Position numbers and translations under genes: made by a program. This document shows positions 2,095-6,052 of a stretch of DNA of 64,000 nucleotides, piece after piece; positions within the stretch are counted from its first letter, which is position 1; each line of letters begins with the position of its first letter. This stretch comes from Escherichia coli (GTDB lineage Bacteria; Pseudomonadota; Gammaproteobacteria; Enterobacterales; Enterobacteriaceae). The notes under the pieces are model-generated. The model was not told the DNA's origin. It searched no databases and was given only the letters and a program-made list of their open reading frames with translations. The stretch lies in NCBI RefSeq assembly GCF_013122565.1, contig NZ_CP053258.1; one strand, 5' to 3'.

Positions 2095-2285
<191 letters not shown>

Positions 2286-2832: not shown

Positions 2833-3267
2833 ATGCCTGCTTGTGAGCTTCGACCGGCCACGCAGTACGACACCGACGCGGTTTACGCACTGATTTGTGA
2901 GCTAAAACAGGCGGAGTTTGACCACCACGCGTTTCGCGTGGGCTTTAACGCCAACCTGCGCGACCCAAACATGCGCTACCATCTGGCGCTGCTGGATGGC
3001 GAAGTTGTCGGCATGATCGGCCTGCATTTGCAGTTTCATCTGCATCATGTCAACTGGATCGGCGAAATTCAGGAACTGGTGGTGATGCCGCAGGCACGCG
3101 GTTTGAACGTTGGTAGCAAGTTGCTGGCGTGGGCGGAAGAGGAAGCCCGTCAGGCCGGGGCCGAAATGACCGAGCTTTCTACCAACGTGAAGCGCCACGA
3201 CGCGCACCGTTTTTATCTGCGCGAAGGCTATGAGCAGAGCCATTTCCGTTTCACTAAGGCGCTGTAA
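2833..3267 (+). CDS. phnO: GNAT-family N-acetyltransferase, PhnO-like (144 aa)
   Basis: 144 aa with a GNAT acetyl-CoA binding motif ([19 protein letters not shown]); sequence recalled as PhnO-like. Strong RBS AAAGGAGAA upstream. Confidence 0.55.
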
Positions 3268-3279
3268 GATGAGCCTACC

Positions 3280-3609
3280 TCATCGCCCATACTCATCTTC
3301 CATTCTCCGCTCTTCATCTTCTAGCTGCCGACGCTCCTGATCAAGCTGGCGCTGGCGATCGTCCAGTTGCCTGCGGCGATCTTCAAACTGGCGGCGGCGA
3401 TCGTCATATTGTCTGCGACGATCGTCGCTCACTTCACGCTGCCAGCTGTCGTCGCGCGAATCTTCATAGTCTCGCCCACGGTCAGGGTTATAAGCGTCGT
3501 TAATCGCCTGCTGAATATTGCCAATGGTGTCGTCGATAATATCGGCCTGGGCCGGAACGGTGGACAGCGTGAGCAGGGTGAAAAGAAAGAGCGTGGAGTG
3601 GTGTTTCAT
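3280..3609 (-). CDS. yjdP: Secreted low-complexity protein YjdP-like (109 aa)
   Basis: Signal peptide MKHHSTLFLFTLLTLSTVPAQA followed by charged DDRRRQ/EDRRRQ repeats. Confidence 0.7.
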   Translation of the reverse strand: MKHHSTLFLFTLLTLSTVPAQADIIDDTIGNIQQAINDAYNPDRGRDYEDSRDDSWQREVSDDRRRQYDDRRRQFEDRRRQLDDRQRQLDQERRQLEDEERRMEDEYGR

Positions 3610-3677
3610 AAACTCAGCCTCGCAACAAAGTTAATACAAGGTAGGCAAAGGTACCTGTCGCGAGTAGCGGAGGATTC

Positions 3678-5939
3678 TCAATTCTCTTGCCCCAGAACCT
3701 GCGCCAGCTGCGCGCGGGTAAAAGGTTTGCGCAACAGCGCTACGTCTGGCAGCGCGGGGTTATGGCTGGGGCGTAAATCCTGGCCGCTGATGAGTAGCAG
3801 CGTCAGATGCGGGTAAAGTTCGCGGGCCGCATTGACCACTTCTGCGCCGCTCATGCCGCCTGGGAGCATTAAATCGCTGATAAAAATATCGATTTCCGCT
3901 GATGCCGCCAGCAGGTCCAGCGCCTGTTCGCCGCTGCTCGCTTCCAGCGTCAAATAGCCCAGCAGGTGTAACTGCTCGCAGATGGTCTGGCGCACCGCGG
4001 CTTCATCTTCCAGCACGAGCACCAGTTTATCGCCGCTGACGGCTGTCTGTTCTACCGCCGCTGGCGATAGGTTTTTCGCCGCCGTCAGCGCGCGGGGAAG
4101 CTGTAATCTGACCGTTGTCCCCTGCCCCGGCGCGCTTTCAATTTCTACACGCCCACCGGACTGGCGCACAAAACCATAGACCATCGACAAGCCCAGCCCG
4201 CTGCCACTCCCCGTCTGTTTGGTGGTAAAGAACGGCTCAAAGACCTGGCTTTTCACCGCCTGCGACATACCGCTGCCATGATCGATGACCTCCAGCGCCA
4301 CCATGTCCTGACGCTGCCCACTGCTGCGGGTAACGCGCTGATTCCAGGTACGAATTTTGATAATTCCCGTCAGCCCTTCCATCGCATCGCGGGCGTTCAT
4401 CACCAGATTGATGATGGCATTTTCCAGCTGGCTGACATCAATCCACGCGGGCCATGCCGGAGACTGCGCTTCAATCTCAATCGTCAGCGTCGCCGGTAAG
4501 GAGTGGCGCATTAATTCGCTTAACTCTTCCAGCAGTGTTTTTAGCTCAACGGCTTGCGGATGTAAGGACTGCTTGCGGGAAAACGCCAGTAGTCGCTGGG
4601 TCAGTAGCGCGCCACGTTCGGCAGCTTGCTGCGCCCGCTGTATTCGCGGCGCGTCGGGTGAGTCCGTGTTCACCAGTTCCAGGCTGCCAATAATTACCGC
4701 CAACAGATTATTAAAATCATGGGCCAGCCCACCCGTCAATTGCCCAACCGCTTTCAGTTTCTGGCTGTGTAATAGCGCCTCTTCCAGCCCCTGCCTCTCG
4801 GTTTGGGCAATCTCCATCTGCGTGGTTTTCTCTTTCAACAGCCTTGACGTTCGTTCGAGTGACGCGGTATTGCGGGCAAAAACGTTAAAGGCGCGCGCCA
4901 GTTCACCCAACTCATCGCGCCGCTGTAACGCCGGAAAAGTGACGTCCGCTTCGCCGTGCGCCAGGCGGCTCATAGCGCGGGAAATCGCCGTCAGGTTAGA
5001 GCCGAGATTGCGATAGATATACCAACCTGCAAATGCGGTGATCACCACCGCTAACAGAGCGAAAATCATGATCACCCTCTCGCCGGAGCGCAAATCCTGG
5101 TAACTTTGCGCCACCCGCTGACCGGAGAGCATCGCCACCTGTTCGGCGTAACGGTTGATGTCGCCATTAAGGATCGCCACCAGCGCTTTGATGTGAAACA
5201 TATACCAGCTGATTGCCAGATCGCTTTGCTCCAGAGCGGCAGAAAGCGGCGCGAGTTTACGCAGTTCATCATTGAAATCATTGAGTAGCGTATTAACCAA
5301 TGGCGTATCGCTGTGGGTCGGCAACGCAGACATTACCCCGACCAGTTGATGAATAATCGCCTGCGGCGCGGGGGTGGCAATAGCGGCAACAATCAGTCGG
5401 TTCATCTCGTTAAGCAAAATATCATCTTGCGCATTAGTGACTTTTTGCAGATGCCGCAGATAACTTAAGTTTTGATACAGCGAACTTAACAGCGCGTTGC
5501 GCTCCAGATGTCGCCTTTGCCCGCGCTCCAACATTCCGCCGACGCTGGTTTGCAGTTCGTTGCTACGCGTGATGATGCGCGCCACCAGCCCGGCCTCCTG
5601 CTGCGCTAACGGCGCGTTCGCCAGTTGTGCAAGCGAGCTTTTTAATGCCCGCTGTGTCTCCTGCAATCGCTCGGCTTCGCCTTTATATTCCAGCGCTCCC
5701 ACCACTTGTGACAATCGCACCGCCGCCGTCGCCACATTTGCCGTGTCGCGCGCCAGATTCAGGCTGCCGGTCATATCATCCACCGTTTGCTGCTGTACCA
5801 GCTCCTGCATCTGGCTGGCATGACGAAAGCCCATTACCGCCACGCCGCTGACCATCAGCGTCACCGCTACCACCAGCAAATTCAAAAGCAGCAATCGCCC
5901 GCGCGCGCTGGCAAAAAAGTGACGTCCGGGGTGCGCCAT
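3678..5939 (-). CDS. Hybrid sensor histidine kinase (periplasmic sensor domain, HisKA, HATPase, C-terminal receiver; no Hpt)
   Basis: ATG at 5937-5939 (MAHPGRHFF...); two TM segments flank a roughly 290 aa periplasmic domain; H-box GGLAHDFNNLLAVIIGSLEL; G-boxes; C-terminal REC (LVLVLEDEAAVR...DLMLPGG). Confidence 0.8.
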   Translation of the reverse strand: MAHPGRHFFASARGRLLLLNLLVVAVTLMVSGVAVMGFRHASQMQELVQQQTVDDMTGSLNLARDTANVATAAVRLSQVVGALEYKGEAERLQETQRALKSSLAQLANAPLAQQEAGLVARIITRSNELQTSVGGMLERGQRRHLERNALLSSLYQNLSYLRHLQKVTNAQDDILLNEMNRLIVAAIATPAPQAIIHQLVGVMSALPTHSDTPLVNTLLNDFNDELRKLAPLSAALEQSDLAISWYMFHIKALVAILNGDINRYAEQVAMLSGQRVAQSYQDLRSGERVIMIFALLAVVITAFAGWYIYRNLGSNLTAISRAMSRLAHGEADVTFPALQRRDELGELARAFNVFARNTASLERTSRLLKEKTTQMEIAQTERQGLEEALLHSQKLKAVGQLTGGLAHDFNNLLAVIIGSLELVNTDSPDAPRIQRAQQAAERGALLTQRLLAFSRKQSLHPQAVELKTLLEELSELMRHSLPATLTIEIEAQSPAWPAWIDVSQLENAIINLVMNARDAMEGLTGIIKIRTWNQRVTRSSGQRQDMVALEVIDHGSGMSQAVKSQVFEPFFTTKQTGSGSGLGLSMVYGFVRQSGGRVEIESAPGQGTTVRLQLPRALTAAKNLSPAAVEQTAVSGDKLVLVLEDEAAVRQTICEQLHLLGYLTLEASSGEQALDLLAASAEIDIFISDLMLPGGMSGAEVVNAARELYPHLTLLLISGQDLRPSHNPALPDVALLRKPFTRAQLAQVLGQEN

Positions 5940-6052
5940 ATCACGCTCCGTGAAGAAAAATCGCAATATGACAAATATGAACGGCTTCTGACATTTTGCA
6001 TTTACTTTCCTGTGATGGAGTGCTGATATCGACAACCTCGCAGGAGTCCACC

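Follow-up and report, generated by a model that had tools for sequence, protein, structure and literature searches.

The DDRRRQ-repeat protein YjdP of Escherichia coli as a predicted exported charged single alpha-helix under putative Rcs control

The window analysed here, a stretch of 64,000 nucleotides of Escherichia coli DNA (contig NZ_CP053258.1), carries on its minus strand a gene of 109 codons, running from ATG to TGA at 3280..3609 with its stop codon at 3280..3282, that is the orthologue of yjdP in E. coli K-12 (b4487). We propose that its product is exported to the periplasm, that the heptad repeats making up its C-terminal half would fold as a charged single alpha-helix, and that it may serve as a stress protein under Rcs control; to this picture as a whole we would give an even chance. 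yjdP is a known enterobacterial gene with no function attached to its name, and the window feature is already catalogued, since it matches an NCBIfam model, has an orthologue in K-12 and occupies a locus at which yjdP is annotated, so that no new kind of element is added. What is new is a testable picture of an uncharacterised but conserved envelope protein, in which a fixed-length helix stabilised by salt bridges takes the place of a disordered tail, together with a putative operator of RcsB type that is phylogenetically conserved. An earlier note on this DNA had placed a DDRRRQ-repeat protein at 3280-3609; the list of open reading frames gives exactly these limits on the minus strand, and the peptide quoted there, RRRQYDDRRRQFEDRRRQLDDRQRQLDQERRQLEDEERR, corresponds to residues 64-102 of the translation.

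The identity of the gene is established by its sequence, its architecture and its position. The window protein scores 148.5 bits (cutoff 90, E 5.5e-44) on NF041443, the NCBIfam equivalog model 'DDRRRQL repeat protein YjdP', and the match spans profile positions 1-101 of 101. Proteins named YjdP are 94-96% identical to it, and the DNA on either side is 95-96% identical to E. coli chromosomes that are annotated with yjdP at this place. When set against 21 family members it shows the same parts in the same order, that is, a signal peptide, the block DIIDDxIGNIQQAINDAY, an acidic linker and DDRRRQL heptads, and the gene lies between the als/OI167 region and the phn/yjdM region, as expected for members of NF041443. 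PF28054 (YjdP) is precomputed by the protein database for every YjdP match; our Pfam-A profile search of the window protein returned sub-threshold noise only, PF28054 being newer than the library searched, and a search of Rfam gave no match at yjdP in the window. Two other candidate identities were dismissed as the kind of resemblance that charged helices produce: the flagellar collar protein FlbB (NF047368), at 17.5 bits against a cutoff of 110, and PbeC, the lone weak match in PADLOC (E 0.008).

K-12 YjdP has the same length (109 aa), the same six heptads and the same chromosomal position as the window protein, and the two mature sequences differ at a single residue, which is S55 in the window and G55 in K-12. 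The signal peptide exists as distinct alleles, beginning MKHHSTLF in the window and MKRFPLFL in K-12, and the proximal 5' region differs too. The neighbours also differ: upstream there is a hybrid kinase of an OI167-type island where K-12 has rpiB, and downstream phnP is deleted in the window, unlike K-12. The spacer between yjdP and phnP in K-12 holds a G-quadruplex/hairpin element (PMC5100583), and this spacer is likewise deleted in the window. As regards published work, induction of CsiR represses yjdP (0.28-fold) with a ChIP peak inside the gene (PMC5217608), and a 68.5-kb deletion in the reduced-genome strain DGF-298 takes in yjdP (PMC10652928), which indicates that the gene is dispensable in the laboratory. 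A literature search on b4487 found nothing relevant, and yjdP was not found in the supplements of three published iModulon studies.

yjdP is a real gene under strong purifying selection. Comparison with the Citrobacter and C. rodentium orthologues gives dN/dS of 0.08-0.11 in the annotated frame at saturated dS (>1), as against at least 1.2 in four of the five other frames; the fifth, the antisense frame matched in codon phase, gives 0.16-0.22, which is above the annotated frame. The same frame-specific comparison led us to reject an antisense open reading frame at 3367..3816 (+), two of the three antisense frames reaching at least 1.25 and the phase-matched one staying at 0.16-0.22. Within the protein, constraint is strongest in the repeats (dN 0.05-0.09).

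The family is small: out of 1.84 billion cluster representatives only 56 match at E <= 0.001, and several fragments or unrelated charged repeats are among these; the distant representatives P0155, P0160 and P0174, for instance, have EERRRQ-type repeats or are long coiled-coil proteins, and were rejected as unrelated. Named members occur in Escherichia, Shigella, Citrobacter, a Klebsiella MAG, Buttiauxella, Entomohabitans and Cronobacter dublinensis. All have in common a fixed order of parts: a signal peptide ending in x-A, a helix of the form D-x-(I/L)-D...QA(I/L)N(D/E)A(Y/W), a D/N/G-rich linker containing Trp, and the heptads.

Export by the Sec pathway to the periplasm, with cleavage after residue 22, is the best reading of the N-terminus, and is what we infer from it. 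The predicted signal peptide (MKHHSTLFLFTLLTLSTVPAQA, residues 1-22, 3544..3609 on the minus strand) opens with a basic n-region, followed by a hydrophobic core of 13 residues (mean Kyte-Doolittle 1.94) and a c-region with Ala at -3 and -1, which places the predicted cleavage between A-Q-A and D; no twin-arginine motif is found in the N-terminus of the window sequence. No Cys occurs anywhere in the window protein and hence there is no lipobox, and we rejected a bacterial lipoprotein of the Lpp kind because the predicted cleavage site lacks the lipobox Cys at +1. The signal peptide is the fastest-evolving segment of YjdP (dN 0.22-0.44), as expected for a cleaved leader, and all family members keep its architecture, ending in x-A before D or N, while its sequence drifts. 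The earlier note had read the product as secreted, with a signal peptide followed by a part of extreme D/E/R/Q content; the first agrees with the best reading of the sequence, and the second is borne out by the predicted leader and by the composition described below.

The gene most likely has its own promoter, to judge from elements that recur upstream of its start codon, all of them on the minus strand. A Shine-Dalgarno sequence, GAGG, can be read at 3618..3621, 8 nt upstream of the ATG, and GAGG or GAGA stands at the same place in most orthologous loci. A candidate -10 hexamer, TACCTT, of the family form TAnnnT, lies at -34..-29 (3638..3643) and is suggested by invariant T, A and T columns in eight upstream regions. 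Further upstream, 71..58 nt from the ATG (3667..3680), is a motif resembling an RcsB box, TGAGAATCCTCCGC. A consensus promoter scan of the region upstream of yjdP returned no sigma-70 site, and two 'terminators' from the consensus scan, which lie inside the coding sequence on the wrong strand, were rejected as by-products of the 21-bp repeat.

The box of the RcsB homodimer, TN(G/A)GAN4TC(T/C)NA, has been defined structurally in Salmonella (PMC7913699), and TGAGAATCCTCCGC fits it at 13 of 14 positions, the final A being replaced by C. When the 110 nt upstream of the ATG were aligned for eight yjdP loci, the core of the motif lay at -70..-73 in all eight, from six genera and with four different upstream neighbours (rpiB, the hybrid kinase, an unrelated 771-aa gene and a divergent transporter), forming a conserved block TTG(A/G)GA(A/T)Tnn-TCC(G/A)CT within upstream sequence that is otherwise unalignable. 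Taking the conserved TAnnnT as the -10 would put the box at about -49..-36 relative to the start of transcription, a position comparable to that of the boxes of ytfK (-50..-36) and yciG (-55..-41) (PMC7913699 Table 2). The core pattern is degenerate, with 15 matches in the 64-kb window against 19 expected by chance, and so the argument for Rcs rests on conservation and position and not on the match itself. The bdm-osmC intergenic region of E. coli, used as a control, contains one box-like candidate site, TAAGATTAGTCCTG, which is also without the final A.

Expression, on which the earlier note had made its reading depend, is seen in published RNA-seq of K-12, in which yjdP RNA rises 9.5- and 10.6-fold on inhibition of LolCDE, from about 10.6 to 100-112 expression units (PMC5105897). 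The top responders to this inhibition are Rcs genes (osmB, bdm, wca, ivy, mliC, yjbEFGH and rcsA), and genes of the RpoS and Cpx responses also react to the inhibitor (PMC5105897). Our literature search found no report on RcsB dependence of yjdP. We regard direct control of yjdP by Rcs as rather probable.

Mature YjdP comprises 87 residues, 67% of which are D, E, R or Q (20 R, 19 D, 10 Q, 9 E); Lys is absent. Charged residues make up a fraction of 0.55, with a net charge of -8 and a mean hydropathy of -2.29. The charges are well mixed (kappa about 0.14), and the repeat part is a polyampholyte rather than the polyelectrolyte suggested in the earlier note. Four parts follow the leader on the minus strand. 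Residues 23-40 (3490..3543), DIIDDTIGNIQQAINDAY, correspond to a conserved N-terminal amphipathic helix, which was recognised from the alignment and is predicted helical at pLDDT 66-71; they contain the most invariant block of the family (D23, I24, D26, I29, G30, N31, I32, Q33, A35, D38 and A39) and, read from the sequence, Ile and Ala spaced at 3-4. The acidic linker NPDRGRDYEDSRDDSWQREVS, residues 41-61 (3427..3489), is predicted to be non-helical at 41-54, where pLDDT dips to about 53; across genera its sequence is variable, yet it is always rich in D, N and G and conserves a Trp. Six heptads occupy residues 62-103 (3301..3426), and an acidic C-terminal tail, EDEYGR, residues 104-109 (3283..3300), ends the translation, with E104 and R109 conserved.

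The repeat, which the earlier note described as low-complexity, has a strict periodicity of 7 residues, or 21 bp, which is not a chance effect of composition. This is evident from the register of the heptads and from the repeats in the DNA, for which Tandem Repeats Finder gives period 21 (score 83, at 3354..3426) and period 42 (score 110, at 3341..3426). In order, the window heptads are DDRRRQY, DDRRRQF, EDRRRQL, DDRQRQL, DQERRQL and EDEERRM, and the family follows the logo [D/E][D/E][R/E][R/Q]-R-Q-[L/Y/F/M]. Across genera Arg stands at position 5 in 77 of 86 heptads, and position 7, the sole hydrophobic position, is hydrophobic in all 86. Among the same 86, R fills position 3 in 46, with E in 25 and Q in 7; at position 4 the counts are 50 for R, 18 for Q and 12 for E.

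The number of heptads is as regular as their sequence. Thirteen of the 14 members whose register could be traced, from unrelated genera, have six heptads (Escherichia, Citrobacter, Buttiauxella, Entomohabitans and metagenomic members), Cronobacter having seven. A probe of 66 nt across heptads 1-3, counted at a coverage of at least 80%, finds the six-heptad junction in 5380 of 5426 complete E. coli genomes (about 99%). Repeat-length variants among 120 close homologues are mostly of 102, 116 and 123 aa, that is, shorter by one or longer by one or two whole heptads, and reflect at least six independent events in which different units were lost or duplicated; indels of 1-5 residues inside the repeats are rare (for example, a one-residue deletion in P0002). 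The commonest 102-aa allele occurs in only about 16-19 complete E. coli genomes. A megablast count of 173 genomes for this allele was discarded, because 154 of them were ungapped alignments to the 109-aa 'RKQYN' allele. The earlier note had suggested looking at variation in repeat number across strains; what is found is the contrary of a free-running repeat, for six heptads are the rule, and the rare variants mostly change by whole units.

In an AlphaFold model of the YjdP monomer, built with an alignment of 22 sequences, residues 55-108 form an uninterrupted single helix at pLDDT 84-98, and the signal peptide and N-terminal helix together form a helix at residues 4-40 with pLDDT of about 60-70, the two being separated by the non-helical residues 41-54. 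The overall pTM of 0.36 is as expected for a rod on a tether. Residues 55-108 contain 35 attractive charge pairs at i/i+3 and i/i+4, compared with 20.3 +/- 3.4 in shuffled sequences, and 4 repulsive pairs compared with 19.3 +/- 3.3; none of 5000 shuffles preserving composition reaches either value. Such an excess of opposite charges at these spacings, with like charges avoided, is the signature of a charged single alpha-helix (CSAH). On a helical wheel the Arg at position 5 meets Asp or Glu at positions 1 and 2, both within its heptad and in the one that follows, which we read as a salt-bridge ladder that would be continuous along one face of the helix; the opposite face would carry a stripe of Y68, F75, L82, L89, L96 and M103 with the arginines of positions 3 and 4 alongside. 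Two points weigh against the helix: Asp favours helices less than Glu does, and charged repeats are easily modelled as helical by AlphaFold. A search of PDB sequences with YjdP gave no match at E <= 1, and Foldseek against the PDB returned nothing significant for either the monomer or a tandem model. With one hydrophobic core position per heptad, a charged single alpha-helix fits the repeat part better than a canonical coiled coil, and we hold that fold to be about evenly balanced between right and wrong.

Hydrophobic residues spaced strictly by seven over six heptads, and indels that are mostly of whole heptads, would also suit a homo-oligomeric coiled coil resembling a leucine zipper. On this view two or three parallel chains of YjdP would make up a rod in the periplasm, with the hydrophobic stripe at d, Arg at g paired with Asp at e', and the N-terminal helix, given its 3-4 pattern of Ile and Ala, possibly nucleating assembly. 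A model of two mature copies fused in tandem through a 30-residue Gly/Ser linker, made with a paired alignment, has a pTM of 0.47 against 0.36 for the monomer, but pLDDT falls to 75-91 in the helix, from 84-98, and below 40 in the N-terminal helix, so that the model itself points neither towards self-association nor away from it; Foldseek retrieved no coiled-coil structure. Moreover, a canonical coiled coil has hydrophobic residues at both a and d, whereas in YjdP the second core position is never hydrophobic, positions 3 and 4 being mostly R, E or Q in the 86 heptads, so that a parallel homodimer would stack Arg on Arg in every heptad. We consider such a zipper unlikely, though it is the chief alternative to the single helix; of the coiled coil proposed in the earlier note, the heptad basis stands, and the second hydrophobic position is taken by Arg, Glu or Gln. 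That note had also thought of disorder, and mature YjdP might indeed be an intrinsically disordered polyampholyte acting through its bulk charge, as a counter-ion buffer or non-specific shield. A charged fraction of 0.55, a mean hydropathy of -2.29 and the lack of a globular core would be in keeping with this, as would the non-helical linker and a pTM of just 0.36. However, the order of the charges is far from random and is matched by none of the 5000 shuffles; selection has conserved the exact repeat sequence, beyond its composition, at saturated dS; heptad number and register are kept across genera; and the high pLDDT of the helix at 55-108 leaves only residues 41-54 of the linker as non-helical. 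For these reasons we judge a disordered YjdP improbable.

A different reading takes CpxP and CpxA as its precedent and would make YjdP a periplasmic accessory or modulator of the LmvK-like hybrid sensor kinase encoded immediately upstream. Such a kinase is indeed the upstream neighbour in Entomohabitans, in a Citrobacter genome and in the window; it lies on the same strand and ends 68-83 bp before yjdP, and the kinases are orthologous, with 82% identity, or 73% over the transmitter/receiver half. Yet yjdP is kept without the kinase in K-12, C. rodentium and E. fergusonii, where rpiB lies upstream, in Cronobacter, where an unrelated pair of large genes takes this place, and in Buttiauxella, which has a divergent transporter; the gene carries its own conserved upstream motif, and the study of the kinase names yjdP only as the border of the island (PMC10128022). 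This seems to us barely plausible. Having no constant partner gene, yjdP behaves as a monocistronic unit, although in the loci compared it always stands at the border of the phn/yjdM region, and adjoins phn or yjdM remnants in Cronobacter, Buttiauxella, Citrobacter and Entomohabitans. A functional link with the phn operon was considered and rejected, because yjdP and phn are convergent, and because genomes that lack some or all of phn still have yjdP.

Returning to the charged single helix as the preferred reading, we envisage yjdP as a stand-alone gene whose own promoter would have an RcsB box in place of the -35 region, so that YjdP would be made when the Rcs envelope-stress phosphorelay fires. 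The Sec pathway would take the small protein to the periplasm, where it would be cleaved at Ala22. Residues 23-40, an acidic amphipathic helix, would probably provide a specific surface for binding or assembly, and a flexible acidic linker would join it to a rigid helix some 54 residues, or about 8 nm, long. Along that helix the Arg at position 5 would bridge Asp/Glu pairs both in its own heptad and in the following one, leaving one face self-neutralised by salt bridges at i/i+3 and i/i+4, and the other face, with its stripe of Tyr, Phe, Leu and Met between two columns of Arg, would present a cationic-hydrophobic binding ridge. For its biochemical role we offer a guess: a stress protein of the periplasm, not an enzyme, whose task would be to bind, shield or space a client or some anionic component of the envelope. 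A more specific version, which we regard as very unlikely, would have YjdP as a strut of fixed length (six heptads, ~6-8 nm), acting as an Rcs-induced periplasmic spacer, ruler or feedback element; the Arg-Leu-Arg ridge would contact an Rcs component or an anionic envelope polymer, and the N-terminal helix would dock elsewhere. Were the strut reading true, it would be the first functional role of a charged single alpha-helix in the bacterial envelope.

The predicted structure of YjdP has analogues among known proteins, none of which it matches throughout. Charged single alpha-helix (CSAH or ER/K) segments occur, for example, in myosins VI and X, and YjdP is predicted to share with them a long isolated helix that is poor in hydrophobic residues and dense in opposite charges at i/i+3 and i/i+4; it differs in using Asp and Arg instead of Glu and Lys, in its strict heptad with one conserved hydrophobic residue, and in being putatively exported to a bacterial periplasm. 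Spy, CpxP and ZraP are periplasmic stress proteins of the LTXXQ family, and YjdP resembles them in being small, exported and all-helical (both as predicted), highly charged and rich in Gln and Arg, and in that they and yjdP are induced together by envelope stress. It is set apart from them by its repeat architecture, and neither a Pfam family of this kind at E <= 1 nor an LTXXQ motif was found in YjdP. Braun's lipoprotein, Lpp, has a hydrophobic a position as well as a hydrophobic d, carries a lipobox Cys and is attached to peptidoglycan through its C-terminal Lys; YjdP is like it in being, as predicted, a small helical rod of the periplasm that is based on heptads, with its length counted in heptads, and unlike it in having no Cys, one hydrophobic core position and an acidic tail. 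If our picture is true, yjdP can be counted with those genes of the Rcs envelope-stress regulon whose products are small and periplasmic, and YjdP becomes a simple bacterial model for an exported single alpha-helix.

The surroundings of yjdP bear several marks of rearrangement. In the window phnO is followed by the convergent yjdP (2833..3282), the two stop codons being just 12 bp apart; phnP and the phnP-yjdP spacer are cleanly deleted, so that about the first 8 nucleotides of phnP (ATGAGCCT, 3269..3276) are joined to the sequence immediately preceding the yjdP stop codon, and the stretch from yjdN to phnO lacks phnC-phnN as well. The layout recurs in ten complete E. coli genomes at about 96% identity. 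Two tandem copies of naRNA4, a REP-derived element (Rfam RF02564), lie between yjdM and yjdN at 2100..2176 and 2200..2276; their scores, 88 and 102 bits, exceed the gathering score of 59.5.

On the other side of yjdP the window has an OI167-type island (PMC10128022). It contains the LmvK-like hybrid histidine kinase/response regulator at 3678..6035 (-) and a divergent sugar ABC transporter from 5996 (+). The TTG start of the kinase at 6035 is probably too far upstream, since the Citrobacter homologue starts at MAHPGRHFF, which corresponds to an ATG near 5939. The first three bases of TGAGAATCCTCCGC, the TGA that opens the TGAGA..TCC box, are the stop codon of the kinase gene in the window (3667..3680) and of rpiB in K-12 (locus L002, 4798..4811); with two unrelated stop codons falling on the TGA of the box, the als/OI167 exchange ends exactly at the yjdP regulatory motif. 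In Cronobacter dublinensis (L003, 723..4894) the pair of genes upstream of yjdP encodes a 618-aa HATPase_c_3/HSP90-like protein and a 771-aa protein without a Pfam match, a layout reminiscent of a defence-type insertion. A Citrobacter sp. (L009, 4486..5156) has a HigB-like toxin and HTH antitoxin pair between yjdP and phnP, which is another sign of an insertion hotspot at this junction. Finally, the Entomohabitans kinase (L010, 2085..3917) is 73% identical to the LmvK-like kinase in its transmitter/receiver half, but its sensor region, which includes a PAS_7 domain, is shorter and of another kind.
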